IMG/VR virus record: IMGVR_UViG_3300009081_000011 | Strand: one strand, 5' to 3' | Source of the DNA: an uncultured virus (IMG/VR IMGVR_UViG_3300009081_000011) | Taxonomy: Duplodnaviria; Heunggongvirae; Uroviricota; Caudoviricetes | DNA: 64,000 nucleotides | Shown here: piece by piece, positions 6,940 to 23,718 of the stretch | Layout: each line of letters starts with the position of its first letter | How positions within the stretch are numbered: position 1 is the stretch's first letter | Position numbers and translations under genes: made by a program | The notes under the pieces: model-generated | Seen by the model: the letters and a program-made list of their open reading frames with translations, nothing else | The model's database searches: none | Told to the model about the DNA's origin: nothing

Positions 6940-8032
6940 GTGTAATATCTCGCGTCTTCCCATGAGCATTTGAAAATCTCTACTTTCTCTTCGATTCGCT
7001 TTCCGTCCATGTCAGCGACGAGCGTGTTCAAGTTCCTTCCGATCTTGTACTCGGAAAGCACGAGCGACCTCGTGCGCGTGTGGTTGTGTAGATGCTCGCC
7101 TGGGGTGTTCCGGTAATAAGGGCCGCAGAGCAAGCACTCGCGGCACACCCACACGCCGTCGTTCTCACGAACGTCGATTTCCCCCACGTCTTTTCGTGCT
7201 TGCAAGTCGAATCTGTTCGGTTCGAGGACGTAGAGCGCAGCCGCGCAAGCGTTGCAAGGTTCGCGAAAGACGTAGTCTGGTAGTACGTTCGCTCGTCCCG
7301 AGTGTGCCCCGTACATGTGATGCAGTCGATACATCTTGTGGGCTACTCGACGCCCCCGAAGACCGGCGCGACGTGCACGGATGCAGAAGTCGATGTCCTC
7401 GTAGTGAACAGTGTTCGTGAACGTCTCCTCGCAACCGTTGAGGGACAGCCACTGGTCGCGAAAAATCATGACGTTGCCGTAGCAGTTCGAGGGCAGTAGC
7501 TGCTCCGGCTCGTCCACGTCGCTGTCCGGTCCCCATCTAGCGCCTGGAGTGTCGGATGAAAACGGCACGTTCTCCCATCGCACCTCGTCGCTGTCTGTGT
7601 TCCAAATCTGGGTGTTGTGATCAGTCTCGGCGTGAACGAATTCTGCTGACGGGGAGTCGCAGTTGTGGAACCTGAAGTCGACGTTGGTCGGGCTGTTCAA
7701 GCAAATTTCGGTGAAGTCAGGACGAACGAAGCGCCAACAAGACAAGCGAACTATCCGCGGCGATTCCGAGTAGCAGTAGCCGGCGTTGAAGACGGCGCAG
7801 TCTAGTTTTTTGGCGATGCGAAGGTTCGGTTGGTACGGAACGTGGATGATGTCGAGCCCGTAGTGCTCGGCGAGCTCTCTCGAGTACGCCTTGCGCTTGC
7901 TGTAGTGGCTGTCGACCAAGAGGACGTTAAAGTCTTTCGCTTTTTGCTCCGACAGACATCGAGCTGTGCTCGGAGCAGGTTGTCTCCCTCGTAGAAGAAC
8001 GAAGGTGTCATTGCGACGGTGAGAGGCTTCAT
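6936..8032 (-). pseudogene. GT-A glycosyltransferase (family 2-like) split by a single frameshift near 7958
   Basis: the N-terminus MKPLTVAM..LLRAQLD continues in another frame as CLSEQKAKDFNVLLVDSH; C-terminal NGCEE..YEDIDF motif. Confidence 0.65.
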
Positions 8033-8634
8033 AGTTTTCGAAACACCTTCCAGGTCTCGTGGTCTTCGATCATTTCGAATCCGCTTGCAGCGAGTATTTT
8101 TTGGGCTAGCAGGGTTGTAGGCCAGTCCGTATCGTCGAAGACCCAGTAGCCTCTAGATCGAATCTTCGGCACCCAAAGCTCGACCTCTTTGCACGAGATT
8201 TCCTCCGAGTGATTTGAATCCTGATGCAAGAGGTCGACCGTGCCGTCTTTGTAGTAATCGGCTACCTCGTGCGAGGCCATTCGAATCAAGTGCGCGTAGT
8301 GTACGAGATCTAGTTCGTAGAGTTTTTTCTGAGCGACTCGCGCGATAGATTCGTAGTCGAGTTTCGCCCACCACTCGTCGTTAGCGGGATCGTTGGTGCC
8401 CTCGAGCGCAGCGGCGGCCGTGAACGGATCGATACCGTCTACGCGGCCTATACCTTTCTCGCGCAGTCCGAGCGCTATTGCCACTAGCCCTCGTCCCCCG
8501 AACACTCCGAGCTCGATGCAAAGAGGGCTCTCGAACGCAAGCCGAGCCATCTTTTTGGCCTTCTCGGGCGTGCACCATCCCGGGATGTTCGGGATTTCGG
8601 CGTCTACGGTCGCGTCCAGCGCTTTCAAGTTCAT
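8029..8634 (-). CDS. class I SAM methyltransferase (Methyltransf_24-like)
   Basis: IELGVFGG, LLHQDSNH, GYWVFDD. Confidence 0.8.
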   Translation of the reverse strand: MNLKALDATVDAEIPNIPGWCTPEKAKKMARLAFESPLCIELGVFGGRGLVAIALGLREKGIGRVDGIDPFTAAAALEGTNDPANDEWWAKLDYESIARVAQKKLYELDLVHYAHLIRMASHEVADYYKDGTVDLLHQDSNHSEEISCKEVELWVPKIRSRGYWVFDDTDWPTTLLAQKILAASGFEMIEDHETWKVFRKL

Positions 8635-10598
8635 GACGTGATCCATCCCATCGCCTCGACTTCGGCTACGTCGACCTGCATGATCCACGCTTCCTGGTCT
8701 TTGAGGCCGTAGGAAATCAACAGTTGGTGGTCGTCGAGCGCCATGCCGGCGCAGAACTCGATCCCGTGGTGTGCAAATACCCACGCGGGAGAGACGGCCG
8801 TCACGATGAAACGCGCGTCTAGCCGCACGAATCGATGAAGATAGATGCGCCCTTCGTTCGTGTCGATGCTTTCGTGCATGATGCACAGGTATCCGTCCTT
8901 GAACGCGATTGCAGCACCGCCTCGGAGGTGTTCGAGCGCAAACGGGCAGCTTCGAAGAGGCCCAGGGAGGATTGCCGTCGGATCCAGCGAGTAGATCCAG
9001 GTGAACTCTCCGTTCACGGAGAGGGGTAGCCAGTTTTTTTCGTGTTGTTGGTTCGATGGTTGAACGTCGGCTTGAACGACATCGCCGTCGTCGTTCAGGT
9101 GCAATCGCGCCATGAGGCGTCTGTCCGGATCGCGATCACAGACAGTTGCTCCCGCAGCGAGCCCGCCGACCACTGAAACCAAACGCACGTCTTCGTAGCC
9201 GACGATTTTGGATTTCTTGCGTGGCGCTGTGTCCAGGTCGCGCATCAATTCGGCACCGATCAGTTCTACGTCAGGGCTCAACCTGCCGAGGTAGTTTTCC
9301 GTGCGTGTGATTCCGTCGGGATCGTCTACCTTGTACTTCTTGCCCGTTATCGTGTAGTTCACGGTTCGCACCACGCACCAGAGCTCTCCGTTGTGCCAAC
9401 AAATACTGGGATTCAGCGGGTGGAATCCGTTCGGAGGCTCGAACAGGATTTGTGAACTACGAGCGCTCGGACACGTGTTCGAGAGTGGAAGCGGCCGAAG
9501 CATTTCACGTGCGTCGTACCGGTTTGGCGTCAGTCGAGTTACGCCCATCCGATCCAGATCTCGGTCGTTCTTGGCGCCGAGCCTGGCGAGCTTGGCGGCG
9601 TTGTAGTCAGCGTCCGCTTTTGCTTGCTCGACCGGATCAGTCAGTGCGGATCGTAGTATGTCGTACGGGAGTTCGTAGAGCGCGGGCAGGAAGCGAAAAT
9701 GTAAACGATCGGGACCGCACCCTTTGTACCGCCCCACCGCCTCTGCAATGCGAGCCCACGCGACAGCAAAGTCGTTTCTTTTGAGGTGGCGTGCGGCTAC
9801 GGCAGCGATCCACGCGCACTCTGCGGATGTAGCGCTCGCTCCTATTCCCCGCGCTGCGGCTCGGATGGCGTCTTCGTAGAGTTTTAGCGCCACGAGTTGA
9901 TCGGCCTGCTTGTAGGCCGCCCAGGCCGCTTCGTCGCCGATTTTTCGGAGAGCGACGCAGTTGCCGTAGGCGATTACAGCCTTGTGGTGCTCACCAAGAC
10001 CCTCGTGCGACATGCCGAGGTAGTACCACCATCGACCGTCGTTTGGGTGTTTGGCCACGTATTCGGTGAGCAGCTCGACGTCGCGCTTGAACTTTTTGTT
10101 TAGCTGTTCTTCGGTTTTGGGGAGTTCGAAAAATGCGACACCGCTGAGTGTTGCGCGCGTTCCACCACGGAGTACCTCGTGCGTTGGACCGACGTAGCAA
10201 GCGCTCGATGACGCGCGTACAAACTTGTCCTTTATGTACGAATCGTAACTGTCGAATGATTCAATCCACACCGCGTCCGCGCGAATATTCGCGAGTACGG
10301 ATCGCAGATCAACCGAACCGAAACGGAAACGCTCATCCGAATCTAGAATTACGATCCAGTCGGCGCCCATTGCCTTGGCTGTGGCGAGCCCGACGTTGCG
10401 GGCGAAGGAGAAGTCATTGGCCCACGTGTGCTTGACGACCAAGAGCTTGCTACCTGCGACCTCTCTTGCACGTTCGATGGTGCCGTCGGTGATGCCGGTG
10501 TCGACGAGTAGAACGCGGTCTACATGATCGACTACGCTTTTGATGGCGTCACCGATCACTGACTCGCGATTGTCCGAAATGGTGACGCTGACGATCAC
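8631..10598 (-). CDS. GT2 glycosyltransferase-TPR protein fused to a beta-propeller glycosidase-like domain
   Basis: LVDTG.TDGT, DFSFARN, LDSDE, HE; TPR-like WYYLG..; NPSI, GYEDVRL, EKNW, GIEFCAG. Confidence 0.8.
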   Translation of the reverse strand: MIVSVTISDNRESVIGDAIKSVVDHVDRVLLVDTGITDGTIERAREVAGSKLLVVKHTWANDFSFARNVGLATAKAMGADWIVILDSDERFRFGSVDLRSVLANIRADAVWIESFDSYDSYIKDKFVRASSSACYVGPTHEVLRGGTRATLSGVAFFELPKTEEQLNKKFKRDVELLTEYVAKHPNDGRWWYYLGMSHEGLGEHHKAVIAYGNCVALRKIGDEAAWAAYKQADQLVALKLYEDAIRAAARGIGASATSAECAWIAAVAARHLKRNDFAVAWARIAEAVGRYKGCGPDRLHFRFLPALYELPYDILRSALTDPVEQAKADADYNAAKLARLGAKNDRDLDRMGVTRLTPNRYDAREMLRPLPLSNTCPSARSSQILFEPPNGFHPLNPSICWHNGELWCVVRTVNYTITGKKYKVDDPDGITRTENYLGRLSPDVELIGAELMRDLDTAPRKKSKIVGYEDVRLVSVVGGLAAGATVCDRDPDRRLMARLHLNDDGDVVQADVQPSNQQHEKNWLPLSVNGEFTWIYSLDPTAILPGPLRSCPFALEHLRGGAAIAFKDGYLCIMHESIDTNEGRIYLHRFVRLDARFIVTAVSPAWVFAHHGIEFCAGMALDDHQLLISYGLKDQEAWIMQVDVAEVEAMGWITS

Positions 10599-10783
10599 GG
10601 CATGGTGCCCTTGTGCCGCGCTCTCGTGATGGCTAGCATTCGAAGCCACGTCGAAACGCCACTGATGCCTGCGCGTTGAGCGGCTTTCTTGAACTCTTTC
10701 TTCTCGGTGGCGGAAACACGCACCACCACCGTTCCTTTTTTGCGGTCTTTTGCCTTGGGGCGTCCGCCGGTTGGGCCGCTCAT
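10595..10783 (-). CDS. ribbon-helix-helix DNA-binding protein
   Basis: GRPK then VVVRVSATEKKEFKKAA...VSTWLR. Confidence 0.7.
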   Translation of the reverse strand: MSGPTGGRPKAKDRKKGTVVVRVSATEKKEFKKAAQRAGISGVSTWLRMLAITRARHKGTMP

Positions 10784-10832
10784 GGGTTCGTATAATGTGC
10801 TAACGAAAAGCATACGTCAACGAAATCGCCTT

Positions 10833-10861
10833 TTGCGCGGGTTTTTGGCCTTTGCTACAGT
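10833..10861 (+). promoter_or_regulatory. sigma70-like promoter candidate
   Basis: TTGCGC-N17-TACAGT with a TG extension, 10 nt upstream of ATG 10872. Confidence 0.4.
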
Positions 10862-10871
10862 AGAGCTCTTC

Positions 10872-11339
10872 ATGAATCGCCGCTCGTTTCTCCAGGCGTT
10901 TGCCGTCACCGCATCTGGCTTGTTTTTGCCGGAGTCGAAGCGTGTCTACTCGTTCGCGCGAGATCTTCGAGTCCCGAGCATCGAATTCGACAGCGCGTGG
11001 CACAAGTTTTCGATCACGTGGGATGGCGTAACTGCTCGTGGGCTTATCGACGATCAAATCGTTGTTGAGGGGAATGATGTGCGTAGCGGCATGTATTTTG
11101 AACGAGATCTAGGTGGAGTGTGGCGCGGTCGGTTAGGTAACCCGTCGTTCGACTTGAGTAAGGGCAAGATCAGCGGCGGGCTCAGAGTAGAGCGCGGCGA
11201 AGTGCACGTCGATTGTATGTCCGGTCGTTTTCTAGGATCCCCGCTCCCGAGTTTCAGCGGGCGGATCGATTCGACAATGCGCATCGTGAGCCCGGACGCT
11301 TCCGTCCGACTTGGTTGGGGCGATCCTCGCGAAGCCTAG
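10872..11339 (+). CDS. protein with twin-arginine-like N-terminus
   Basis: MNRRSFLQAFAVTASGLFLP. Confidence 0.55.
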   Translation: MNRRSFLQAFAVTASGLFLPESKRVYSFARDLRVPSIEFDSAWHKFSITWDGVTARGLIDDQIVVEGNDVRSGMYFERDLGGVWRGRLGNPSFDLSKGKISGGLRVERGEVHVDCMSGRFLGSPLPSFSGRIDSTMRIVSPDASVRLGWGDPREA

Positions 11340-11575
11340 GGGAAGTACGCGAACATCTGCTGCCCTGCGCGTACGTAGAGTGCCTCAGCGCTTCGTGTGT
11401 CGTGCTCCCATTCGGATCCGGTCCACCGCCACCGGTGGAGCCGTCGCACTCCGGGTGTGCCCCGTTCGATATCGGTCTCGTACCGCCAAAGCGTTTCGTC
11501 GTTGAGCAGCACGTACCCGTGCCATTGACCGCCGTTGTCGCGTTCGACCCACCAAATGTAGTAGGCCCAGTTCAT
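11336..11575 (-). CDS. Trp-rich hypothetical protein
   Basis: 79-aa ORF with ATGA coupling to the upstream gene. Confidence 0.5.
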   Translation of the reverse strand: MNWAYYIWWVERDNGGQWHGYVLLNDETLWRYETDIERGTPGVRRLHRWRWTGSEWEHDTRSAEALYVRAGQQMFAYFP

Positions 11576-12243
11576 CCTATGATCATCACGGTGAGCGTGA
11601 GCCCCCTGATCAGCATGTTCGCGGAGTCCGTGACGACCTTGGACAACACGGGTTGGATCGTGTCCCCACTCGTGAGCGACATCCTTCGTTGAGCCGTGGC
11701 GGTCGATGGGCTAGTGATCCCCGGATACTCGAGTCCCTGTCCCGCGCCCGCTGCTGCGGCGACAGTGCCAAACGTAGCTTGTCCGATGAGATCGCCGTTT
11801 TGTGCGATGCCGATCGCATAGACACGATCGCCCGATGCGGCATCTGGAGAGACCGCTTGTGAGAGCCACGAGATAACCTCGACGTCGGGACCCGTGTACG
11901 TGAGAATGCATCCGGCAGCGGTTAGTGAGAAGCGGCCAGCGAGATCGGGAGACAGCACGAAGTCGGTTCCGGTAATTCCGATGTACTGATCGCCCGGGTA
12001 CGGCGCCGTGGTGGTGTACTGTGTGGTTTGATCGTCGGTGACTTGGGCGGTTGCTACGCCTGGCGTGCCGGCAGGGCCTTCCGGGCCTTCTGCTCCGTCG
12101 GCCCCATCTGCGCCTGTGGGTCCGGTTGGTCCCGTGTCGCCTGGTGGCCCCTCAGATCCTGTTGGTCCGGCCGAACCGCCGCCGCTACTTCGTTCAGGGT
12201 ACGTTTCTCGCGCGTAGCTACGGCGGCCGACGATGTAGGCCAT
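11572..12243 (-). CDS. collagen-like spike/fibre protein with shared N-terminal motif and beta-rich head
   Basis: MAYIVGRRSYARETYPER, about 12 Gly-X-Y triplets, beta-rich C-terminus. Confidence 0.7.
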   Translation of the reverse strand: MAYIVGRRSYARETYPERSSGGGSAGPTGSEGPPGDTGPTGPTGADGADGAEGPEGPAGTPGVATAQVTDDQTTQYTTTAPYPGDQYIGITGTDFVLSPDLAGRFSLTAAGCILTYTGPDVEVISWLSQAVSPDAASGDRVYAIGIAQNGDLIGQATFGTVAAAAGAGQGLEYPGITSPSTATAQRRMSLTSGDTIQPVLSKVVTDSANMLIRGLTLTVMIIG

Positions 12244-12246
12244 TTT

Positions 12247-13833
12247 TTATCGGGTGATCTCTTCTACGAACTCGTCGATCGCGATGAGACCCGTGTTCCG
12301 GGTGTACGCCAGCGTGTGAACCCCAGCGGCGAGAGGACCAGAATCGAAAAGGAGAACGTTCAACTGTGTCGTAGCGTCTGTTTGCGTGATGATCTGCGGT
12401 GCGCCTCCGTCTAGAACGAGCGAGCCGGTACCAACGCCAGCACCCTTTCGTCCTTTCAACATCAGTCGCGTGCAATTAGCTCCGCTCGTGAACGTTTTCG
12501 AGTTCGCGGCGGTACTCGTGCGGCTCTCTGCGTATTCGAAAGCGCCGTAGACGGTCGAGCCCTGCTGCAAGCTCCAACCGGCGCCGACGGTGGCTATGTG
12601 CGAGTTGAGCCAGTTCGGATGGTAGTGGTTTTCGTAGACAGGAGGCAGGTTGTCCGTTTTGACGTTGATGAGCGCAGCGAGCCACGGAGAGAGGCCCGCG
12701 TTGGGCGAGCGAACTATGGACTGCTCTGTCGGCAAGATGTCACCGCTCTCGTCGGGCTCTTCTGCCGGGTGAAACCAAATCGCCTGGAGTGGCGAATAAA
12801 CCTTCGCGAATTGGATCGCGTTGCTGACGTGCCCTTCGATCTGCTCGTAGGTCGGGCAATCGACCCAGTTTCCAGGGTCGCCGACGTCGATGCGGGGGCG
12901 GCCGTCGTTTTTCACGGTCACGGCCGGGATAGTTTCGTTCGCGCCGTTGAGCGTCCAGAACTCGATGTCCTTGGCGATTTGATCGCTGTACGGTCGATGG
13001 GCTACGCCGAACGAGGTTTGGTTGGGCCCATAGAAGAACACGCCGTCTAGCCCCAGCGTCGTGACCATCAAATTCGTGTTGCCGTAGATCACGCCTCGGT
13101 TGAAAAGCGCCGCACGCAATTCGTTAACGCGTGTCTGATCCCACGCCGGTCCCGCTGAATCGAACAAGAACATGATCGGGCGGCCGTCGCTGGTCTTCCA
13201 GTGCATCTCGTGTTGTGTGAACGGGATCCAATACGGAAGAAAAACACTGGTGAAATTCAACCAAGTGCCGCCGGTCGGGGCTAGCGGGGGCAATTTCACT
13301 AGCGTTGTGTTGACGTCGTATGCCGCTTGCCCGGAGATGTTGACGAAGCAGAACTTCGGTTTGTTCGGGACAGTACTCGCGATGTAGAGATCGAACGGTC
13401 GCGTCAGAAACTGCCGGTTGTCGAGCGCTCCGCTCACGAGCACCAGATCTGGGTTCATGTACCAGTCGAATGCGAGCACCGTAACGCCGCCGTCTCTGTA
13501 TTTCTCGAGGATGTAGTCCATGTTCGCTTGGTCGACGGCAGCGTTGCCGGAGTCCAAGTATCGAAACGGAACGTCTCCAGCTCCGAGTTTGTCTCGGTAG
13601 CTGTAGTCCTCTTGCGCATCCGGATCAGCATCGTCCTGGAGCAGCGGAGAGACCTGAAACTGCTGCGACATGCCGCGCACGAGCGCGCCGGGCCAGAAAA
13701 CGCTGACCACCTCCAGATCGTTCGAATCGAAAGATACGATTGCTTTGTTGCAGCCTAGCGCCCCGATGGCCGCGAGCAGGACGCCCGCTAAACCAAACCA
13801 CCGGGGCGCTAGGCCGCTCTTGGTGGATCCCAT
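12247..13833 (-). CDS. lipoprotein-like glycoside hydrolase candidate with C-terminal beta-sandwich
   Basis: lipobox-like GALGC; AFDWY and KFCF segments resemble GH99/GH71-like barrels; CBM-like tail. Confidence 0.5.
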   Translation of the reverse strand: MGSTKSGLAPRWFGLAGVLLAAIGALGCNKAIVSFDSNDLEVVSVFWPGALVRGMSQQFQVSPLLQDDADPDAQEDYSYRDKLGAGDVPFRYLDSGNAAVDQANMDYILEKYRDGGVTVLAFDWYMNPDLVLVSGALDNRQFLTRPFDLYIASTVPNKPKFCFVNISGQAAYDVNTTLVKLPPLAPTGGTWLNFTSVFLPYWIPFTQHEMHWKTSDGRPIMFLFDSAGPAWDQTRVNELRAALFNRGVIYGNTNLMVTTLGLDGVFFYGPNQTSFGVAHRPYSDQIAKDIEFWTLNGANETIPAVTVKNDGRPRIDVGDPGNWVDCPTYEQIEGHVSNAIQFAKVYSPLQAIWFHPAEEPDESGDILPTEQSIVRSPNAGLSPWLAALINVKTDNLPPVYENHYHPNWLNSHIATVGAGWSLQQGSTVYGAFEYAESRTSTAANSKTFTSGANCTRLMLKGRKGAGVGTGSLVLDGGAPQIITQTDATTQLNVLLFDSGPLAAGVHTLAYTRNTGLIAIDEFVEEITR

Positions 13834-14591
13834 CTGAAATCGACGTCGTGATAATCCACGAGCGTTAGCCGCTGCGCTGTGCCTGCGCTGCGGATCTTGC
13901 TGCCACCTTCGGCAATCGCATTTGTCGGTAGCGCCGCGAGAGCGACGTCGCCGATCGACACGCCGTTGACGAGAAACCGAGTAGTCTGGGCAGGGACGCC
14001 GTTCCATGCGACGCCGGTGCCGTTGTGTCGAATCTCGAGCTCGACGAACGAACCGGCTACGACCGGAATGCTCGTACCGCCGGACGTGAGTGTCGGCACC
14101 GATGCCTTCATCGCAACACCACGCCAGTTTCCGCCCGAGAGGTTATCCGAGTACTCGAAGTACACACCGTCTGTTGGAGCGGCAGCGAGGCTGTTGATGA
14201 GTCCGTGTCGATCTGCGAACCTATCGCCCGCCGTACTGAGCGTGACTATGTTGACTTTGATCCGTTCGTGCCACCGTTGCCCGGCCCCGATGATTCGATT
14301 TGGCGTGCTCGATGCGAATCTCGCGTAGGCGGCTATGGCGTTCGTGCTCGTTACGGTCTCGAGCTGCAAGACACCTTGAACCGTCGTCGACTGGCCCGTC
14401 GTTACGAACGAAAGAGTTCCGTTGTTCGCGAAACTACCACGCCACCCTTTGCTGAAAACTGTGTTGACGGCGATTGCGGCGACACCGGTGCCGGCGTTGC
14501 CGCCCCATGTGAAATCGTCTTCTTCTATGAACTGTTCACGGGTACCTCGACCCATGAAGCCGCCCACTTGATCCGGTTGAACTAGTACCAT
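13809..14591 (-). CDS. beta-sandwich (ConA/LamG-like) virion protein
   Basis: Thr/Gly-rich beta protein; DGVYFEY, VELEIR, RFLVNG, LVDY. Confidence 0.5.
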   Translation of the reverse strand: MVLVQPDQVGGFMGRGTREQFIEEDDFTWGGNAGTGVAAIAVNTVFSKGWRGSFANNGTLSFVTTGQSTTVQGVLQLETVTSTNAIAAYARFASSTPNRIIGAGQRWHERIKVNIVTLSTAGDRFADRHGLINSLAAAPTDGVYFEYSDNLSGGNWRGVAMKASVPTLTSGGTSIPVVAGSFVELEIRHNGTGVAWNGVPAQTTRFLVNGVSIGDVALAALPTNAIAEGGSKIRSAGTAQRLTLVDYHDVDFRWDPPRAA

Positions 14592-14598
14592 TTGAGCC

Positions 14599-14946
14599 TC
14601 ACGAAGATGGTTGGTAGAAGATGGTGACGCGCCATCCTTCTACGAGACTTGGGTCTTCACTCGTCCAGGTGATCACGTTCCCGGCGAGATCCCAAAAATT
14701 CGAATCGTAGAAGAGGCCGTTCGCGAAAAAGATGATCCCTTCTTCCGAGGCCGGCGTGTCTGCCAGAATGAACTCGTTGATGTCCTCCTCGGACGAGACT
14801 GTGAAGGTCTCCGAGGTGTAGCCGAGCGCTCCGCCGTCTGCTCCGGTGGGCCCCTCTGGGCCTGTCGGTCCTGCGCCGCCACTTCCTCCGCCTCGTTCGG
14901 GATAGGTTTCCCTTGCGTAGCTTCTTCTCCCGACGATGTAGGCCAT
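14599..14946 (-). CDS. short collagen-like protein with shared N-terminal motif
   Basis: first 18 aa identical to the 11572-12243 protein; GPTGPEGPTGAD; small acidic beta domain. Confidence 0.7.
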   Translation of the reverse strand: MAYIVGRRSYARETYPERGGGSGGAGPTGPEGPTGADGGALGYTSETFTVSSEEDINEFILADTPASEEGIIFFANGLFYDSNFWDLAGNVITWTSEDPSLVEGWRVTIFYQPSS

Positions 14947-14961
14947 TTTTGCTCCTTGGCC

Positions 14962-15888
14962 TTAGACTTCGTTGATCGTGTTACTGATGAGCGTGACCGC
15001 TGTCTGCGCGAGCGCTCGGCCGTTGAGAACTGCGCCGGCTTGCATAGCGATTCCGGTTGCGCCCAAAATCTCCCCGTTGACCGTCACGCCCGGGAAGATC
15101 GTTACTTGCCCGGACACAGCCCAGAAAACGTTCTCCGGGAGGATGCCACCGACGAGTAGGACATCCTGTTGGATGTCCAGTGCGCCTAGCACTTGAATAA
15201 TGATTCCGTCTCCGACGCCGCCGTTGATTGTAAGAGGCCCCGCCGTGATGACCGATGCGCCAGTGTACCGATGCACGAATCCGGCTGTGAGCGGCGAGTC
15301 GGCGCTGATATCTCCGCCGACTGAAGTGAAGTCGGGCACCCGTCCGATGGCGTTGTTGTATGCAGCGATCATGTCGGCGCTGGCCTGCACGACCTTTGCG
15401 GGCGTCGGTACTGCATAATCCGGTGCGAACACCTGTCCGAGCTGTGGCGGTGGGCCAGGATCCACTTGAGCGGAAGTAGAGAACTGACCTCCGCCATCGA
15501 GCACGAGCGCGAATCCGGTAATGCTGGCGGCTGCGGCCGGGTTGACGCCCATGTCGCCGTTGACGTCTGATCCGCCAGTCGTGGTGATGCCCGACTGCGC
15601 AAAAATAGCGAAGTCCTCGCCTGTGCCCAAAGCAACGAATTGCGTCGGTGGCGGTGTCGGCGGCTCAGCTGCGCTCGGTCCTGTGACTGCGTTGTTCCTC
15701 AAGCTGATTGCTTGATCTCGAGGACGCGAAGCCCAGCTCCAACCCCCGTACTCGCTGTCGAAGTTGGGCGTGACGCCGAGATTTGCACGGTGGCGCTCCC
15801 GGTACTGTGCTTCGTCGATCAACTGTCGAGGTGCACCGTTCTCCGAATGCCCGCTCTTGTGTTTCAGGTTCTTGAGTTTGCGCCTCAT
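14962..15888 (-). CDS. ice-binding protein (DUF3494/IBP-like beta-solenoid) with basic N-terminal leader
   Basis: FAIFAQSGIT, GDMGVNPAAAASITGF, DMIAAYNNA.GR, NVFWAV, LNGRALAQTAVTL. Confidence 0.85.
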   Translation of the reverse strand: MRRKLKNLKHKSGHSENGAPRQLIDEAQYRERHRANLGVTPNFDSEYGGWSWASRPRDQAISLRNNAVTGPSAAEPPTPPPTQFVALGTGEDFAIFAQSGITTTGGSDVNGDMGVNPAAAASITGFALVLDGGGQFSTSAQVDPGPPPQLGQVFAPDYAVPTPAKVVQASADMIAAYNNAIGRVPDFTSVGGDISADSPLTAGFVHRYTGASVITAGPLTINGGVGDGIIIQVLGALDIQQDVLLVGGILPENVFWAVSGQVTIFPGVTVNGEILGATGIAMQAGAVLNGRALAQTAVTLISNTINEV

Positions 15889-16175
15889 GGGCCGTTCCTC
15901 GTTTCGTGTGGATCACCGAGCAGTCTCAACATCACGGCGTCGGCGAGTAGAGAGCAAAAACTTGTTGCGGCACCGACGACGTACATGTCGAGGGCTTTGC
16001 CGCGACCTAGAGTCACGACACCGAAGACACTCGCCCCCATTCCGACCCACATTCCGACGCACATGCTGCAACCGAAGAACGTAGGCCACACACGTCGGAT
16101 CGGATCGAAAATGGCGCCGCGCACGACGATGAGCGTCGTACCGACGAGCGCGAGAAGAAAAAAGAGGTGGTTCAC
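15885..16175 (-). CDS. small membrane protein (DUF1360-like)
   Basis: hydrophobic helices, IFDPIR and CSMCVGMWVG. Confidence 0.65.
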   Translation of the reverse strand: MNHLFFLLALVGTTLIVVRGAIFDPIRRVWPTFFGCSMCVGMWVGMGASVFGVVTLGRGKALDMYVVGAATSFCSLLADAVMLRLLGDPHETRNGP

Positions 16176-16702
16176 GGGGATGTGGCTTGGAATCTGGCGA
16201 GTTGCCAGATGAACAGGTTGGTGCCTTCGGCAAGGATGTTACCGTTGCCGCCTCCGGTAACCTCGATGCCCGGAACGAACAACACAGGCAGTAAGTGTCC
16301 GGGAGCTGGTGTTTCGGAACCGAATCGAACGGCAGACATGGTGGCGTTGACGGCCTGTAGCGCGGCAACGTCGGAAGCCGTCGCGTCTTCCTCTGATCCG
16401 GATCCTATTTGCAGGGAAATCCCCAACACCGTTGGCTCGACGTCGATGGAGACTTGTAACGTCGCCAAATACACGCCGAACGGCGTGAAAAAAATGCTCG
16501 TTGCGGCTTCTATTTCGAAATCTCCGAACGAAGCCGATTCGTAGACGACTGTGTCGAATGGGATGAACCTTGCAACCCCGTCGACGTAAGGCACATTGCC
16601 AGAGAGCCCCAACTGAGCGAACGGTTGCGCCGCGCCAGGCGATCCTGCCGCTCCACGCGGGTACGCTTCGGATTTGTGACCTGTTCTGCCAATGAGGTGC
16701 AT
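16172..16702 (-). CDS. C1q/TNF-like head protein with N-terminal motif variant
   Basis: MHLIGRTGHKSEAYP; IPFD...F...GVY pattern. Confidence 0.55.
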   Translation of the reverse strand: MHLIGRTGHKSEAYPRGAAGSPGAAQPFAQLGLSGNVPYVDGVARFIPFDTVVYESASFGDFEIEAATSIFFTPFGVYLATLQVSIDVEPTVLGISLQIGSGSEEDATASDVAALQAVNATMSAVRFGSETPAPGHLLPVLFVPGIEVTGGGNGNILAEGTNLFIWQLARFQATSP

Positions 16703-16709
16703 CGGTTGT

Positions 16710-16895
16710 TTACTTTCGTGAGGATAGAATCTCGACGAGACGAGTTGCCGTTTCCGGCTTGAGCTTGATCGTGCCGACTGATCCGATCTCGGCGTCGTCG
16801 TCGCTGATTTCGACGGAACCGTCTTCGAACACCTTCACGGTCGGGCACTTCTTGTACCCGCAACACATTGTCTCCTGGTGAATCAGATTGGGCAT
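16710..16895 (-). CDS. small Cys-containing protein
   Basis: 61 aa with RBS GGAG; MCCGYKKCP. Confidence 0.6.
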   Translation of the reverse strand: MPNLIHQETMCCGYKKCPTVKVFEDGSVEISDDDAEIGSVGTIKLKPETATRLVEILSSRK

Positions 16896-16905
16896 GGCTG
16901 GCTCC

Positions 16906-17430
16906 TTACCCTGTTGCCGGCATCAGCTCGTGAACATCGAGCGATGATGCGCCTGGATCTATGCTCAAGACGTCTGGGTTGTTCGCCGTGAGAATTACTT
17001 GAACGGTGGCTGTCACGCCTAGCGGCAATACAGATCCGTTGGTGAATACATTCACTTCAGTGAGGATGGGGATCAAAATATACCCAGATGCCGACAGCGT
17101 CGGTTCTGGGTTGAATGGGATGAACAACAGTTCGCCGTTGACCGCGACATGCACTGTCAACAATTCTTGGATCCCAGAGGAGCTTTTGACGCCGATGACG
17201 CCGATGATGCGCACCACGCCGGTGACACGCGGAGTAATCGGCACAGTCACCCCTGCCACTCCGACGTCCAAGCTTTGCCACGGGACCGATGTGGGCGATG
17301 TGAGAATCGGAGTGACGTTTTCCGGGCCAAACGCCGCGTTGCGCGCCAGCATTCCTGCCGCCGCACCACGTGGCGTTTCTGGGTAGGAGTGGTAACGCGT
17401 GCCTATGGCGTGGTTGATGAATTCGCTCAC
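16906..17430 (-). CDS. beta-sandwich virion protein, paralog of 17684-18223
   Basis: IGTRYHSYPE motif; LARN..GP..VPW..VPIT.RVTG aligns with the paralog. Confidence 0.65.
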   Translation of the reverse strand: MSEFINHAIGTRYHSYPETPRGAAAGMLARNAAFGPENVTPILTSPTSVPWQSLDVGVAGVTVPITPRVTGVVRIIGVIGVKSSSGIQELLTVHVAVNGELLFIPFNPEPTLSASGYILIPILTEVNVFTNGSVLPLGVTATVQVILTANNPDVLSIDPGASSLDVHELMPATG

Positions 17431-17672
17431 TGCCGTTCTCTCATGTGCGCCGCACGCTTCGCCCCGGTCAGTTCTTCAGGCGTCATGGGCACCAATCTGT
17501 TGGCGACGAGGAAGCTCAACTGCACTGTGCCTCGTCGCGTAGACAAGAGGCGCTCGACCGTCTTCTCCCAGTCGGCGTACACGAGAGCTTCGCCGTTCCA
17601 CTCCGGAGAATCGAAGTAGTCTTTGCAAGCGTGAGCCGCTTCGAGCTGAGCCTTCGTGATGACGACTTGCAT
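17427..17672 (-). CDS. hypothetical protein
   Basis: 81-aa ORF coupled to the downstream gene. Confidence 0.55.
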   Translation of the reverse strand: MQVVITKAQLEAAHACKDYFDSPEWNGEALVYADWEKTVERLLSTRRGTVQLSFLVANRLVPMTPEELTGAKRAAHMRERQ

Positions 17673-17683
17673 GGATGCCCTTT

Positions 17684-18223
17684 TTACTGCGCGTTCGTAA
17701 TTTCCTGAATCTCGATCGTGCTCGAAGCCGCTACCAACTGCACCAAAGGCGTTGGTTCGTCGTCGGCGCTCACTAACACTTGAACGTTGAACGCAGTGCC
17801 GACGGGCACGCCCGGCGCTACCGCAACGACGATCGAGAAAGGGATCGCCATTGTGCTCACACCCTCTGCCACTGCTCCGTCGATCAACGATCTCAGGTCT
17901 GCAGGCACAGGAAGTGAAACGCCGTTGATCTGGATCTCCACCTGAACGTTGACCGGATCCGACGAGGTGTTCTCCAGGGCGACTACGCCCGAAATGAGAA
18001 GCTTTCCTGTAACGTGCGCCGTGACAGGTACGTCCGTGCTAGGGACGCCGGTGCTTTCGATCACGTTCCATGGAATTTGAACGCCAGCAATTGGAACGTC
18101 TGTGTCTGCCAGCGGTCCCGACGCGAAGTTTCGCGCGAACGCGGCTACGTTTGGGCCTCCGGCGCCTGCGCGGGCCTCTGGGTACGTTTCGGCCGCGAAT
18201 TTGCGACCCATTCTGTGTGCCAT
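17684..18223 (-). CDS. beta-sandwich virion protein with N-terminal ETYPE motif
   Basis: MAHRMGRKFAAETYPE; paralog of 16906-17430. Confidence 0.65.
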   Translation of the reverse strand: MAHRMGRKFAAETYPEARAGAGGPNVAAFARNFASGPLADTDVPIAGVQIPWNVIESTGVPSTDVPVTAHVTGKLLISGVVALENTSSDPVNVQVEIQINGVSLPVPADLRSLIDGAVAEGVSTMAIPFSIVVAVAPGVPVGTAFNVQVLVSADDEPTPLVQLVAASSTIEIQEITNAQ

Positions 18224-18226
18224 GGT

Positions 18227-19492
18227 TCAACGCCTCTTTCTGCTCGAACTTTTGCGACGTGTTGGCCCGCGCGAGCCGCGCTTGCCTCGAGAGCCGCGGG
18301 CGCCCCTCTTGCCGCCCGTCACTGCGACGGCGACGACGCCCACGAGCGCGAGCGCGCCAATGGCGCCGGCCACGATGGCGCCGGTCGAAATCTTCTTTTC
18401 GGATCCGACGACGATCGGCTGCCCGGGGGTTGGTGCAAATGGCGGAGTAACCGGCACCGTGACCGTCGGGGTCGGCTCCGGGGGCCTCGGCGGAGGCGTC
18501 GGGACTGTTGCGCCGCTTGGAGTGTTGCTCGACCCTGGCGGCGCCCACCATGCCGGGCGAGGGCTACACCCTGCCGGTGCGCTCGGGAGCAGTCTCCGAG
18601 CGGCAGTAGCGGTGTTGTCCCCGTACTTTCCGTCGGGGGAGACGCCGAGCGCCCGCTGGGCAGCGTAGACGATGTCGAGGCTCGACTGATCGCACGGATT
18701 GATCGTTGCGAGCGCCGCTACGGGCGCCGGCACCGTGACCTGCGTGACAGACGGCGTAGGCGCCGGCATTGACGAGGGCGGGGTGAATGAAGGTGGCGGC
18801 ACTGGAGATGCGCCGGGGCAGTTCGATTGCCCTGCCGGTTTCCACCACGACGGCCTAGGGCTGCACGGACCTGGGGCATTTGGATCCACACGGCGCGCAG
18901 CGGCGGCCGTATCTTTCCCGTACTTACCGTCGACGGTGACTCCGAGAGTGCGTTGCGCTTCGCAAATGTGTGCGACGTTCGTCGGATCGCATGGATCGAG
19001 AAACGACGAGCTCGAGGGTGCGGTTGTCGCAGTGACAGGTGCCGAAGCCGTTGGAGCGGCGCTGCCTGGGCATTTGTTCGATCCCTTCGGCGCCCACCAT
19101 GCAGGCGTGGGGCTACATCCGCTGGGCGCACTCGGCACGAGAGCGCGCAACGCCGCCGCGGTCACACTTCCGTACTTTCCGTCGACCGTCACGCCGAGAA
19201 TGCTTTGGATCTGACAGACGTAGCCGACGTTCGCTTGGAGGCACGGGCCGCCCGCGATCATGAGAAGGTTCACCACGTCGGCCGCTGGATCGCCTAGTCC
19301 GAACGAGGAGCCGATCGTGCCGCCGACCGGCACGTTGATCGCTTCAAGTGGCGTGAGGGATTTCCAAGTGCGCTGCCCCGCAACGACCCTCGTAGGCTTG
19401 TGCGGGTTGGCGTTGATGAGCGTGTTCATCGGGATGCCGTACGCGCGAGCGATGCGCGACGGGCTATCCCCTGGTTTTGTCTGGTACCGCAT
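18227..19492 (-). CDS. LysM protein with three Cys-rich peptidoglycan-binding-like repeats, TM anchor and basic tail
   Basis: YQTKPGDSPSRIA..LINANP; three LGV(T/S)(V/P)DGKYG..TA.A repeats; C-terminal hydrophobic helix followed by Arg/Lys. Confidence 0.8.
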   Translation of the reverse strand: MRYQTKPGDSPSRIARAYGIPMNTLINANPHKPTRVVAGQRTWKSLTPLEAINVPVGGTIGSSFGLGDPAADVVNLLMIAGGPCLQANVGYVCQIQSILGVTVDGKYGSVTAAALRALVPSAPSGCSPTPAWWAPKGSNKCPGSAAPTASAPVTATTAPSSSSFLDPCDPTNVAHICEAQRTLGVTVDGKYGKDTAAAARRVDPNAPGPCSPRPSWWKPAGQSNCPGASPVPPPSFTPPSSMPAPTPSVTQVTVPAPVAALATINPCDQSSLDIVYAAQRALGVSPDGKYGDNTATAARRLLPSAPAGCSPRPAWWAPPGSSNTPSGATVPTPPPRPPEPTPTVTVPVTPPFAPTPGQPIVVGSEKKISTGAIVAGAIGALALVGVVAVAVTGGKRGARGSRGKRGSRGPTRRKSSSRKRR

Positions 19493-19496
19493 GTTT

Positions 19497-20162
19497 TTAG
19501 CGCTTCTTTCTCGTGGCGATGTAGACGATGCCGCCGAGGACGACAGCGCCGCCGGCAGCGATTCCGACCATCGCGCCGGTCGAGAGTTTCTTCTTTTCTT
19601 CTTGCGCGGGCCCCGGGAGCGTCGTTCCGGGGAACGGCGCCGGGAAGTCTTTCGGATTCAGCGCCACAACGGTGCGAAGCGCGTCGAGGGTGTCCTGGTC
19701 GAACACACCATCGGTGCGAAGGATGAGTGGGGATCCGTCGCGCTTCGTCATTCCGAGCTTGGAAGCGTTGAACCAAGCTTGAAAACACCCGCTCGCACGA
19801 CCGATTTCCGGAGCCCACGTCGGACACGACGTGCCCGTCGTCGAAACGATGAGGCTGTTCAACTTGGCGAGAGTTTCGGACACCCAGACTTGCTCGTTGG
19901 GCTTGAGCTGCACCCAAGCATCTGGATCGCCGGGGCCACCGATTCCGAATCCGCGAGCGCGATAGCCGTTGAACGAAACGCCAGCAAGACCTTGTGACAT
20001 TGGACTAACTCCGTCTCCGCAATCGACGCACGAGGGGCGCGCCGGTAAAAAGTTTTTTACCCACAAACAGTCGTGCACGCGAATGCCCTCGTCGGTCGGG
20101 CCTTGAACCGGATGGTCGACGACGAAGTTCGGGTGACCTGAAGCTTGCGCCGGTGTCGTCAT
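19497..20162 (-). CDS. membrane-anchored protein with PG-binding-like motif
   Basis: FQAWFN..LRTDGVFDQDTLDAL; KKKLSTG-TM-TRKKR; ATGA coupling at 20162. Confidence 0.65.
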   Translation of the reverse strand: MTTPAQASGHPNFVVDHPVQGPTDEGIRVHDCLWVKNFLPARPSCVDCGDGVSPMSQGLAGVSFNGYRARGFGIGGPGDPDAWVQLKPNEQVWVSETLAKLNSLIVSTTGTSCPTWAPEIGRASGCFQAWFNASKLGMTKRDGSPLILRTDGVFDQDTLDALRTVVALNPKDFPAPFPGTTLPGPAQEEKKKLSTGAMVGIAAGGAVVLGGIVYIATRKKR

Positions 20163-20464
20163 GGGAACCCCACTGTTGGTGGTGTGGTTGTGGCCGCTTC
20201 GTTTTTGCCGTTTGTGGCGTTCTTGCCTGCGACCCACGCGAGGACGAACGCCTCGATAGCGCTCGCGGCGGCGATCGAGTTTCGCGCCAGGTGGTCACGT
20301 TGCCCGACGAGGTAGAGGCCGCCTCCGATGAGCGCGGCACGGAGAAGCGTGCTCGCGACGACACCGACAATGCCGCTCGCGATGTTACCGCGCACGAGAG
20401 TCACGGCCGCATCCGAGGACGGAAGCGTGATGCACTGGTCGCCGAGACCGAAAGACGGGTTCAT
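20159..20464 (-). CDS. small membrane protein
   Basis: MNPSFGLGD followed by hydrophobic helices. Confidence 0.6.
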   Translation of the reverse strand: MNPSFGLGDQCITLPSSDAAVTLVRGNIASGIVGVVASTLLRAALIGGGLYLVGQRDHLARNSIAAASAIEAFVLAWVAGKNATNGKNEAATTTPPTVGFP

Positions 20465-20697
20465 GGGAACCCCAACATTCGAAGAGGCGGCCCAGAGACG
20501 CCGATTTCTTTCTTTTCGTCGACCTTCGTCACGGTCACGCCGATGAACGTGGCGACCACAGCACCGACGGCGCCGCCAATCGCCCCCGCCGTCACGCGAT
20601 CACCTCTGATGTAGAAAGCGTCAGCGAAGACGTCGGCCGCGAGCACGCCCGCAGCGCCACCGAGACCAGCAAGCAGAATCGTTCCGCCCGCGCTCAT
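20461..20697 (-). CDS. small Gly-rich membrane protein
   Basis: two Gly/Ala-rich TM helices. Confidence 0.6.
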   Translation of the reverse strand: MSAGGTILLAGLGGAAGVLAADVFADAFYIRGDRVTAGAIGGAVGAVVATFIGVTVTKVDEKKEIGVSGPPLRMLGFP

Positions 20698-21593
20698 GGT
20701 ACCTCCGGTCCGAGGTTCTCATCGAACACGAGAGCGCCCGCGATGGTTCCGTACTGTGCGAACGTCGGATACGCGACGACGAATTGATCTTCGGGACCGA
20801 GCGCCGAAAACTGCTGCGTGAGATCCGTTCCTTCCAAGAGAGCTGGATTCAGTGCCGGATCATTCTGGCGAACGCTCGCGAAGAGCACGACGTCACACGG
20901 TGTAGGGATCGGAATATCGAGTGAGTACTCGGACCAATCAGATCGCCATGGGTATCGGAGCTCGTGGATGTTGCCCAAAGAGGCTCCGAGAGGTTCGCCC
21001 CAGGGGCGCCCACCGTTCGGCGGCACGTAAGGCCCGGTCGTTTGGTAGAGGAGTGCAGGAGACTTCGCGTCCTGGTAGACGATCCCGTCCGCGTTCGCCG
21101 GGTTTCGTGTGTCGCGCGTGACCGTGTTGATGATCATCACGTGCCAAGAGATGTTTCCGTCGAAGGGGTGCCAAAGCGGGCTCGTGATCTCTTTTCGGAA
21201 GGTGACGGTGCTGCCTGCGGGCGGCCCGCTCGCTTCCGGGTTCGAGAGCGGCGCCGTTCCGGCAGGGATCCGCGCAACGAGCTCGGCGTACTGCCTGATG
21301 CCGACGAGACGAACACCGCAGTGCTCCGGGCTCTGTTCACCGCTTCGGAAGCTCGCGCGAGCAAGAATGAAAAGGTAACGCGCGTTGTTGATCTCCGAGC
21401 TCGGAGTCGCCGGCACGACGAGGCCTGTGTACGCATTCGTGTTGTACGGGTCGCTCCCGACGAACACGAACTCGGTGTTTGGCCCATTCGTGACGATCTC
21501 GTACCGGCCTTGGTTGAACCTGTTCCGCAACGCTGCGCCCGCACCCGCCGGATGCGTTTGAAGGCGCAGGATGTTGTCGGAACGACGGGCCAT
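20694..21593 (-). CDS. putative virion structural protein
   Basis: about 300 aa, TGATG-coupled to the upstream gene, in the structural operon. Confidence 0.55.
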   Translation of the reverse strand: MARRSDNILRLQTHPAGAGAALRNRFNQGRYEIVTNGPNTEFVFVGSDPYNTNAYTGLVVPATPSSEINNARYLFILARASFRSGEQSPEHCGVRLVGIRQYAELVARIPAGTAPLSNPEASGPPAGSTVTFRKEITSPLWHPFDGNISWHVMIINTVTRDTRNPANADGIVYQDAKSPALLYQTTGPYVPPNGGRPWGEPLGASLGNIHELRYPWRSDWSEYSLDIPIPTPCDVVLFASVRQNDPALNPALLEGTDLTQQFSALGPEDQFVVAYPTFAQYGTIAGALVFDENLGPEVP

Positions 21594-22195
21594 CACTTCT
21601 TCAAGAGGACGGTGAGATCTGGAACTTCGAAGCCGAGCATTTTGAGACGTGCGCGGCAGTCGGAGTCCGAAAGATCGTCGAGATCCTTCGAGTTGAACTG
21701 CCATCCGAGAAAACTGATCGTCACGTTGAACGGAACGCTCACAGGTGTTTGCGTGAGGATCGCTGCGACCTTGACGTTCTCTTGTTTGTGAAGGAGCCAA
21801 CCTTCCGGCCACGTGACGGCGAACACGTCGGCGAAGTTTCCGAGATCGGTGAAGGTGTCGTTGATCGCGTATTTCGGCGAGCCGTAGACATCCATGCGGA
21901 TGCCGACGCCCGTCTGCCCGCTCTGCTTCAACTGATTGAAGTACGACGACTGGAACGGGCTCCCGGGGAAGCTGTTCTGCTGGAACAGGTTGTACGCGAC
22001 ACGTTCGATCCACGTGTCCTGAGCGGTGTTGTTCTCGAAGCTCGCGACGACGGGCGGCGCGTTCACGGTGCTTGACGAAAACTGGATCGGAATGTCGAGG
22101 ACGGTCGGCACGCGCGGAACACCGACCACCATGCCGTAGGCAATCTTCGGCGCGTAGAGCGCGATATTTTTCACATCATAGGACTTCGGCTGCAT
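21593..22195 (-). CDS. putative minor capsid/beta-sandwich protein
   Basis: 200-aa beta-rich protein directly after the capsid candidate; RBS GGAG. Confidence 0.5.
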   Translation of the reverse strand: MQPKSYDVKNIALYAPKIAYGMVVGVPRVPTVLDIPIQFSSSTVNAPPVVASFENNTAQDTWIERVAYNLFQQNSFPGSPFQSSYFNQLKQSGQTGVGIRMDVYGSPKYAINDTFTDLGNFADVFAVTWPEGWLLHKQENVKVAAILTQTPVSVPFNVTISFLGWQFNSKDLDDLSDSDCRARLKMLGFEVPDLTVLLKK

Positions 22196-22282: not shown

Positions 22283-23599
22283 TCAGCCCGCGGCCGTTGG
22301 CCCCATGATCTGGGGCAGGTTGGTCTGGCAGTACGCCTTCCAGCCTCCGGGCATTTCCCAGCCCTTGATCTTGATACCGATCTTCAAGATGCCGCCCTTG
22401 AAGATCTGACGGCAGGTGTCGACCTGTTGCTGCACGAGCACCGGCGTCGCGTCGAGCGTCTGTTCGAGCATGACGTTGTTGTTGGCGATCGGGAACGCCT
22501 GCGGCACACCGGCACCGGCGAGAGCGCCGACGATCGTTGCGCACGAGAGGTTCTCGTCGATCTCCACGTTGGTGCCGAGCGGCTCGTTGTCGATGGTGAG
22601 CGCTTGCATCATGAGCGCCTGGTGCACGGCGTCTTGCGACTGGAAGAGCATACCGACCGGGATGCCGCGCTCGATGAAGCACGGGCTTTCGATCGGGCGG
22701 TACATCTGGCCCTTGCAGCCGTAGCCCTGCCACCGGAGGCCGCCCCACGTCACCGGCGCGAGATCGAAATCGCGCGTCGGGTGGAACACGCCCACGTTCT
22801 GGGTGATGCTCGCGTTGTTGACGCTGCCCACGCGCCGGAAGTTCACGGGGAGGAAGATCGTTCCCGAGCCCTTCGAGCGGTAGATCGCGTTCGTCGCAGC
22901 AACGAACTCGATGATCGGGATCTCGCTCGTGCCTGCCGCTGCGGCGTCCGCGAAGGAGCCGAAGTACGAGACGTCCGCCGCGAGCTCGTTGAGCACGAGT
23001 TCACGTTGCGAGGTCTTCCAGACGAACTGGTAGGCGTTGATGAAGTTCCAGCCCGCGCGCCACACCGGCGCACCGAACTCGAACACGGCGGGCGTCAGAG
23101 AGACTCCGTCGCCCATCGCTTCTTGCGCCTCGTCGTTCGCGGTGAACACGTCGGGGCTCGGCGGGGGCGCCGTGGTCTCCGAAGGTGCCGTAAAGGCGTT
23201 GCCGATCGTCGAGAAGCTCATCGGCTCGCAGAAGATGTGCACGCCGATGCCTTGCGCGAGGATGTCGGTCTGGAGAATGCCGTTGATGAGGAACGTCGAG
23301 TCGATCGACGCCACACCGGGCACGCTCGAGGAACCCGAGAGCAGATTGACCGTGTCGCCGAACGTTGAGAGTGCTTCGTCGGCCGTGAGCGGAAGCGGGA
23401 TCGTCCACACGACCTCTTCGATCACGGGGATGTTGCCGAATCCGCATTTGATGCACTTGTCGACGGCGCCGAGAGTTCCGGGTGAGCCAGGCTCCACGCC
23501 GAGACCGAACTGAAGCCGACGCGGCTTGTCCTTCTCGAACTTGTAGACCTGCCTGCCGAGAATGCTCTTGCCCTTGGTGCCCTTGTCTTTCGATGCCAT
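22283..23599 (-). CDS. putative major capsid protein (no HK97 signature recognised; jelly-roll suspected)
   Basis: 438 aa, beta-rich, strongly C/G-ending codons, purine-rich leader, flanked by hairpins, centre of the structural operon. Confidence 0.5.
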   Translation of the reverse strand: MASKDKGTKGKSILGRQVYKFEKDKPRRLQFGLGVEPGSPGTLGAVDKCIKCGFGNIPVIEEVVWTIPLPLTADEALSTFGDTVNLLSGSSSVPGVASIDSTFLINGILQTDILAQGIGVHIFCEPMSFSTIGNAFTAPSETTAPPPSPDVFTANDEAQEAMGDGVSLTPAVFEFGAPVWRAGWNFINAYQFVWKTSQRELVLNELAADVSYFGSFADAAAAGTSEIPIIEFVAATNAIYRSKGSGTIFLPVNFRRVGSVNNASITQNVGVFHPTRDFDLAPVTWGGLRWQGYGCKGQMYRPIESPCFIERGIPVGMLFQSQDAVHQALMMQALTIDNEPLGTNVEIDENLSCATIVGALAGAGVPQAFPIANNNVMLEQTLDATPVLVQQQVDTCRQIFKGGILKIGIKIKGWEMPGGWKAYCQTNLPQIMGPTAAG

Positions 23600-23658: not shown

Positions 23659-23718
23659 CACCTCAACCCCGGGGTTCGAGACCTACCGGGGCTGAGGTGG
23701 GGGCTTTTTTCTCAGCCC
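23659..23718 (-). promoter_or_regulatory. structured RNA element in the leader of the capsid candidate
   Basis: 14-bp stem at 23659-23699 (one G-U) and a competing 8-bp stem at 23689-23718. Confidence 0.5.

Follow-up and report, generated by a model that had tools for sequence, protein, structure and literature searches.

Adenoviruses and tailed phages recognise their hosts by a common design, in which a fixed anchor is combined with an exchangeable head; tailed phages join a conserved N-terminal anchor to an exchangeable C-terminal depolymerase or fibre. The adenovirus fibre is described as binding, through its N-terminal tail (FNPVYPY), in the cleft between penton-base monomers (PMC8156859). 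For PRD1/PR772, a tail-less bacterial virus with an internal membrane, the account in PMC6750898 gives a spike with a collagen-like motif and a distal head for host recognition, the spike protein P5 being inserted into the penton by an N-terminal domain of c. 124 residues homologous to the penton protein P31. Here, we consider a set of genes in a stretch of 64,000 nucleotides from an uncultured virus (IMG/VR record IMGVR_UViG_3300009081_000011; the whole stretch is called the window), the products of which begin with a conserved peptide of about 17 residues, the tag. We lean towards regarding this tag as a virion-attachment peptide that plugs exchangeable, linker-borne heads into one site on the particle; its position, its conservation at the peptide level, its modular pairing with unrelated heads and its genomic link to a capsid module are established. 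The fixed-anchor principle is known, and would here be reduced to a peptide of 17 residues in a widespread, uncultured family of large tail-less viruses; this peptide and this family are without prior description (literature searches found no account of the virus group, which is not proof that none exists).

Like the trimeric adenovirus fibre, the proteins considered here begin with a short conserved peptide, behind which come a shaft and an exchangeable head, and an aromatic-Pro pair (Y-P) is present in both. Unlike the fibre, they lack FNPVYPY (the consensus here is IIGRGRYARETYP, with only Y-P in common), their shafts are collagen or Gly-rich linkers rather than a beta-spiral, and the tag is found on four to six or more different proteins in a single genome; nor could a penton-base homologue be recognised here. 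The adenovirus parallel, which had been drawn in a first-pass annotation of the window, is thus borne out by the N-terminal position (residues 1-3 in 85 of the 86 matches from a protein collection, described below) and not by the sequence, and serves as an analogy. With PRD1/PR772 the likeness lies in a tail-less bacterial virus with an internal membrane (the first apparent and the second probable here), in the collagen-like motif of the spike and in a weak fold match to P3 of a 438-aa (amino acid) presumed capsid protein; the part in common among the proteins here is only c. 17 residues, with unalignable sequence behind it and no match to the motif model described below inside the 200-, 299- or 438-aa particle proteins, and the genomes of the group are of 53-125 kb as against 15 kb. 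P5, which the same annotation had invoked, does not fit the tag as a mechanism, because P5 uses a whole penton-homologous domain of c. 124 residues where these proteins have 17. The receptor-binding proteins of tailed phages resemble these proteins in evolutionary logic: heads are shuffled on a fixed anchor, a genome has several paralogues, and both collagen and beta-helix modules occur. They differ in that no tail, portal or terminase match was found here and that the anchor is a peptide and not a domain.

The tag in the window and in related viruses

A run of minus-strand genes extends from 18223 to 11572, all co-directional and with neighbours separated or overlapping by a few bases. Five of them open with M-x-x-[IV]-[IV]-G-R-x-x-x-x-x-E-T-Y-P, four as strong matches and the fifth in a degenerate form. 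They are listed below with E-values from a motif hidden Markov model (HMM), for which the search space was 7,187 stop-to-stop frames from the window and 32 related loci.

11572..12243, minus strand: 223-aa tag-bearing protein; MAYIVGRRSYARETYPE is followed by about 13 Gly-X-Y triplets and a head without an assigned family (E 1.3e-8)
14599..14946, minus strand: 115-aa tag-bearing protein; the same 18 residues as in the 223-aa protein, a short Gly-X-Y stretch and a small head (E 7.8e-8)
16172..16702, minus strand: 176-aa tag-bearing protein; MHLIGRTGHKSEAYPRG, Gly/Ala linker (E 1.2e-5)
16906..17430, minus strand: 174-aa protein with a degenerate tag, ..NHAIGTRYHSYPETPRG; GTG start; paralogue of the 179-aa protein (E 1.3)
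17684..18223, minus strand: 179-aa tag-bearing protein; MAHRMGRKFAAETYPEAR, Gly/Ala linker, ARNFAxGP box and knob-like head (E 1.0e-6)

The five open reading frames (ORFs) and their N-termini, as given in the first-pass annotation, were confirmed in the ORF translations. That annotation had the motif common to all five, which holds for four (E 1.3e-8 to 1.2e-5); in the 174-aa protein, comparison with orthologues (MSEFVGRTG..YSYPE) places N-H at the position of G-R, and the Y-P-E end alone is retained, so the earlier alignment of a 'GT' in this protein with the 'GR' of the others was out of register. A loose form of the pattern, sought in all six frames, has seven matches in the 64-kb window, of which five are the N-termini of these genes and two (38706 and 40076) lie away from credible gene starts.

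The 223-aa and 115-aa proteins resemble each other over their first 47 residues alone (70% identity). Their first 18 residues are identical, and yet eight of the 18 codons (11 bases) differ, every change being synonymous; our recount thus agrees with the earlier one, and it is the peptide, not the DNA, that has been conserved. The 174-aa and 179-aa proteins are full-length paralogues (27% identity across 177 aa, E 2.7e-16), and the 176-aa protein is weakly similar to both. A close homologue of the latter with the same start was found in the protein collection (P0355), and homologues of the 179-aa protein occur in 12 loci. In L023 (12669-13151), a tag gene of the 179-aa family is placed between the genes for the 200-aa and 299-aa particle proteins considered below.

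A scan of related genomes, suggested as a check in the first-pass annotation, found the tag throughout the family: the window and 20 of the 32 related loci contain 61 tag-bearing genes (55 of them distinct), at one to six per locus, encoding proteins of 77 to 1870 aa. In all 61, the tag is at the start of the gene, and the gene lies on the strand of the capsid gene and downstream of it (by c. 2.7-11 kb where the position of the capsid gene is known). Related loci without tag matches are mostly short or belong to particular clades. In an alignment of 51 N-termini, with the consensus M-x-x-I-I-G-R-G-R-Y-A-R-E-T-Y-P, G6 and P16 are each retained by at least 90% of the sequences and Y15 by all of them; beyond about residue 17, there is an unalignable linker rich in Gly, Ser, Pro and Ala. 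When a profile of the 40-residue N-termini was compared with a collection of 5.8 billion proteins, at least 86 matches were obtained at E<=0.001 (8,000 candidates scored), not one of which has a name. The genes for these had been called independently, and the tag begins at residues 1-3 in all except one, where it starts from residue 35, behind an apparently over-extended start. A further 32 credible matches were found in 16 of 62 non-duplicate metagenome loci, and since variants (such as GWGRY..YP) are present in two long loci for which no match was scored, the motif HMM undercounts. The tag offers a sequence handle by which the host-recognition proteins of the family might be catalogued, with 61 examples in 21 genome pieces and at least 86 in the protein collection.

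A short, strictly N-terminal sequence common to unrelated cargo might also be an address or leader signal, directing proteins to an assembly site or the viral membrane or marking them for a viral protease, and perhaps cleaved from the mature protein; the internal proteins of T4, with their N-terminal capsid-targeting sequence, would be an analogy. A second N-terminal peptide (..GFGLG..) that is shared by membrane proteins, a lectin-like protein and the start of the 438-aa protein is in keeping with this, as is a conserved transglutaminase-core (papain-like) protein that adjoins the capsid genes and is present in 27 of the 32 loci. However, the 51 N-termini show variable Gly/Ser/Pro linkers after the tag and no cleavage-site consensus, and the cargo consists of fibre-, collagen- and beta-helix-type proteins of up to 1870 aa, which fits external appendages and not packaged internal proteins. 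We consider this explanation unlikely, while noting that address and anchor functions are compatible with each other.

On a quick tree of the 438-aa protein (from which the duplicate loci L011, L021, L024 and L029 and the truncated loci L004, L028 and L033 were omitted), the distribution of the tag needs two to five changes. In distant clades, with capsid identities of 40-47%, fibre-like genes begin with other short N-terminal peptides followed by poly-Gly, which suggests that these clades use their own, clade-specific anchors of the same design. Loci without the ETYP tag but with such alternative peptides are L036-L040, L031 and L006; examples are ..AxEALYR.., followed by seven to nine Gly, and ITQLTGDVTAGPG.

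Linkers, heads and their exchange

A Gly/Ala-rich or Gly-X-Y linker follows the motif, as the first-pass annotation had noted and as can be read from the translations. The 223-aa protein passes the cut-off of the Pfam Collagen family (PF01391; 27.5 bits, cut-off 27.2), and Gly-X-Y is visible in the translation of the 115-aa protein. The same annotation had each linker followed by a beta-rich head, a claim for which there is a lead in the ESM Atlas model of the 179-aa protein (pTM 0.62, low confidence): it resembles viral knob proteins (TM 0.62-0.71), some of which end collagen proteins, and its neighbours include one C1q-domain cluster. Of the two elements of a P5-type spike, a collagen-like stalk is seen as Gly-X-Y in the 223-aa and 115-aa proteins, and a TNF/C1q-like head has a lead in the low-confidence model of the 179-aa protein.

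Among 51 tag proteins from related loci, matches to Pfam were distributed as follows.

Collagen: 9
Ice-binding-like beta-helix: 1
Pectate-lyase-like beta-helix: 1
CBM5/12, sub-threshold: 1
No match: 39

That the heads are interchangeable, as had been claimed, is supported by the many kinds found across the family. In the window itself, the five heads do not represent five separate kinds, two belonging to the 174-aa and 179-aa paralogues and a third to the 176-aa protein, which is weakly similar to these. A head of c. 410 aa comes straight after the tag in seven loci and also terminates a collagen fibre of 1870 aa, and in a tag-less clade a fibre of c. 50% identity carries a different N-terminal domain of c. 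150 residues. One further gene of the window array is relevant to exchange.

14962..15888, minus strand: 308-aa protein; N-terminal module of c. 65-80 residues fused to an ice-binding-like beta-helix (PF11999, E 4e-45)

The ice-binding head of this protein is 71% identical over 227 aa to one in L007, also matching PF11999, that stands behind a GRGRYA tag. Its N-terminal module (MRRKLKNLKxKSGHSENG...SRPRDQAISLR) is a separate small ORF in 15 loci; in the window and at least five other loci (L001, L002, L003, L012 and L026), this module of c. 70 aa is directly upstream of a collagen-type tag protein. Given its fusion in the window to an ice-binding-like head, the module could be an adaptor or an anchor of another type. 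Heads and anchors are thus shuffled across the family.

The particle module, its virus and the proposed docking site

The tag genes form a packed, co-directional array that continues from genes for membrane proteins and from a particle module made up of the following genes.

22283..23599, minus strand: 438-aa protein, better conserved than the other particle proteins; presumed major capsid protein of the jelly-roll type and a candidate surface for docking, 4 kb upstream of the tag genes
21593..22195, minus strand: 200-aa conserved particle-module protein; candidate docking partner (a weak lead); present in all 32 loci
20694..21593, minus strand: 299-aa conserved particle-module protein; start set at MARRSDN, because relatives align from there

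Relatives of the 438-aa protein (45-77% identity) were found on 32 IMG/VR contigs of 4-125 kb and none among 50,697 cultured-phage records; its family comprises 218 representative clusters, and the 200-aa protein has 659 relatives, none of them named. Folding of the 438-aa protein gave an unusable model with 22 close sequences (pLDDT 50.4) and a confident one with 79 diverse sequences (pLDDT 87.2, pTM 0.84). Fold searches with the model gave weak matches, the viral ones being nearly all to jelly-roll capsid proteins, with the PR772/PRD1-type P3 as the best of these; in Foldseek the best was papillomavirus L1, with none at E<=0.001. The protein is presumed, on this modelling, to be a jelly-roll-type shell protein, of which the barrel may be double or single, without a close solved relative. 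Comparison of the 438-, 200- and 299-aa family profiles with PDB sequences gave nothing meaningful, and only one of 79 members of the 438-aa family was matched by a PHROG (E 0.0093). The possibility that the 200-aa and 299-aa proteins correspond to the pair of single-jelly-roll capsid proteins found in P23-77-like viruses was found to be without sequence support: hhalign probabilities were <1% for the 200-aa family with P23-77 VP16, for the 299-aa family with VP17 and for the two families with each other.

If the tag is an attachment peptide, its c. 17 residues would form a short, probably extended segment docking non-covalently at one common site on the particle. The Gly-rich or collagen linker behind it, presumably trimeric where it is of collagen, would then present the exchangeable part, whether a knob, a beta-helix adhesin, a collagen-tipped fibre or an enzyme, and this head would recognise or degrade structures of the host surface. 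The first-pass annotation had proposed just such a plug-in system, with interchangeable heads at a capsid site. The extreme N-terminal position, the flexible or collagen linker and the unrelated heads across the family are as expected of an anchor; the capsid site, a penton and presence in the virion stay as the conjectural part of that proposal. That the tag binds the particle, the site at which it does so, and the binding of the host by the heads are what we infer. Together with its partner, the tag would be a testable binding pair that could reveal how the particle is constructed, and it might also serve as a minimal display tag.

Several points weigh against this reading. We infer the association of tag proteins with the virion from gene context, and one of the five window proteins has a degenerate tag. 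With four to six or more tag proteins per genome competing for a single site, many sites or mosaic particles would be needed. Moreover, the tag has been replaced in nested clades without an evident counterpart in the capsid proteins. When 11 loci without the tag were crudely compared with 19 rows that have it (the window and 18 loci; L006, L015 and L034 were omitted as uncertain), only four of the 937 columns of the capsid module tracked its presence: none of 438 in the 438-aa protein, three of 200 in the 200-aa protein (N45, R65 and Q91) and one of 299 in the 299-aa protein. This comparison is confounded by phylogeny, and the tag-less assignments may miss variants; the 200-aa protein is accordingly a weak lead at best as the docking partner, judged from these sequences. 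Co-folding of the tag (40 aa, with the 51-row alignment) with monomers of the three proteins gave a score of 0.00 twice, without controls, a result that is neutral either way.

The tag might instead bind, rather than the capsid shell, a small adaptor protein that sits on the particle. There are three candidates, all conserved and interleaved with the tag genes.

16710-16895: 61-aa Cys-rich protein, conserved in 21 loci
17427-17672: 81-aa protein, conserved in 11 loci
Start of 14962-15888: the module of c. 70 aa described above, conserved in 15 loci

The 61-aa gene is present in 19 of the 20 tag-bearing loci and otherwise only in L006 and L015, and the c. 70-aa module, so often directly upstream of a collagen-type tag protein, bears a head in the window. 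Such co-occurrence, however, tracks phylogeny, and the small genes are also found in L006, where no tag proteins were detected. An adaptor of this kind seems to us rather improbable.

No terminase, portal or structural tail families (tube, sheath or baseplate) were found in a Pfam scan of the 72 ORFs of the window; the sole match with a tail-related name, Phage_lysozyme2 ('Phage tail lysozyme'), is to an enzyme domain. Other Pfam matches in the window were to membrane proteins with LysM and peptidoglycan-binding domains, an M23 peptidase, a transglutaminase-core protein, methyltransferases, glycosyltransferases, RadC, Dam and a family A polymerase. In five related records, of which four are complete by estimate, there was no match to Terminase_6N or Phage_portal, the only two terminase and portal families searched there, nor to Pox_A32. 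A HerA-like ATPase encoded in the window (268-2055, plus strand) was considered as the packaging ATPase and rejected as a core function, being present in only two of the five; the best named relative of this HerA/FtsK-like protein, 29% identical over 97% of its length, is the 'HerA helicase' of a tailed phage in which a separate terminase is encoded. In these searches, the family shows no recognisable packaging enzyme.

Conserved N-termini are a common feature of the modular receptor-binding proteins of tailed phages, and the tag proteins could in principle be ordinary tail fibres or tailspikes attached by the usual N-terminal anchor to a baseplate or adaptor. The 223-aa protein matches tail-fibre PHROGs (best E 1.2e-9), though through its collagen stretch only, and Atlas neighbours of the 179-aa head are labelled Uroviricota. 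Set against these are the missing terminase, portal and structural tail families in the window and in the five related records, within the searches just described, the modelling of the 438-aa protein as a jelly-roll rather than an HK97 fold, and a tag of c. 17 residues in place of an anchor domain. We therefore regard tail fibres as very improbable. Small membrane proteins and tail-anchored peptidoglycan-binding proteins are encoded after the capsid genes, which suggests an internal membrane, and the source of the window is an uncultured, apparently tail-less and probably membrane-containing bacterial virus with a presumed jelly-roll capsid.

A more far-reaching possibility, to which we attach little weight, that of an undescribed lineage, at the level of a realm, of tail-less bacterial viruses with large genomes (53-125 kb), in which the tag serves as the fibre plug. 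An internal membrane and a divergent jelly-roll shell would here occur together with features known otherwise from adenoviruses, namely Gly-Gly-type tags, a capsid-linked cysteine protease, a protamine-like arginine core protein and a fibre-tail peptide at the N-terminus. The tag would then dock on abundant capsomers and not only at the 12 vertices, giving each particle a mixed coat of four to six different adhesins and enzymes.

The tag also has a bearing on whether vertex or fibre logic of the adenovirus type has an older origin and a wider range than the known Varidnaviria. Distant capsid representatives, used as queries, retrieved no further viral loci. Short contigs with relatives of the capsid gene or of tag proteins (L033, L034 and P0298) had been binned to metagenome-assembled genomes of Candidatus Binatia, Polyangiaceae and Streptosporangiaceae; as hints of the host, these bins are weak and inconsistent.

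Neighbouring genes

The second peptide, ..G-F-G-L-G-(D/E/A).., is found in four places in the window (23486-23521, 20159-20464, 18227-19492 and 2837-4411). It is carried by the 438-aa protein in its N-terminal arm (family consensus RVPFGLGxxPG), by a small membrane protein at its start, by a LysM/peptidoglycan-binding membrane protein and by a B-lectin-like protein. In the ETYP-less clade (loci L017-L022), xSRGGRPVxGFGLGD opens several of the genes that lie downstream of the capsid module. The second peptide might serve as an address or as a site for a protease.

Just upstream of the 438-aa gene, a 566-aa protein (23712-25412, minus strand) has long poly-arginine tracts (RRRRRR runs) followed by hydrophobic segments, and its relatives range in length from 442 to 1205 aa. 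From its sequence, it has the appearance of a DNA-condensing core protein of the protamine type that is tied to a membrane.

Virus-encoded modification of fibres or capsid has precedents in chloroviruses and mimiviruses. Beside the fibre genes of the window, at 5840-10649 (minus strand), there are three methyltransferase-domain genes, a GT7C-like glycosyltransferase gene and a gene for a 672-aa GT2/TPR protein, and by analogy this cluster could modify the fibres or the capsid. Two other ORFs in the vicinity have apparent export signals in their translations: a 586-aa ORF (12247-14007, minus strand) has a probable internal Met start that gives a lipoprotein-type signal (..LAAIGALGC..), and a 216-aa ORF (10689-11339, plus strand) has a signal of the twin-arginine type, MNRRSFLQAFAVTASG.

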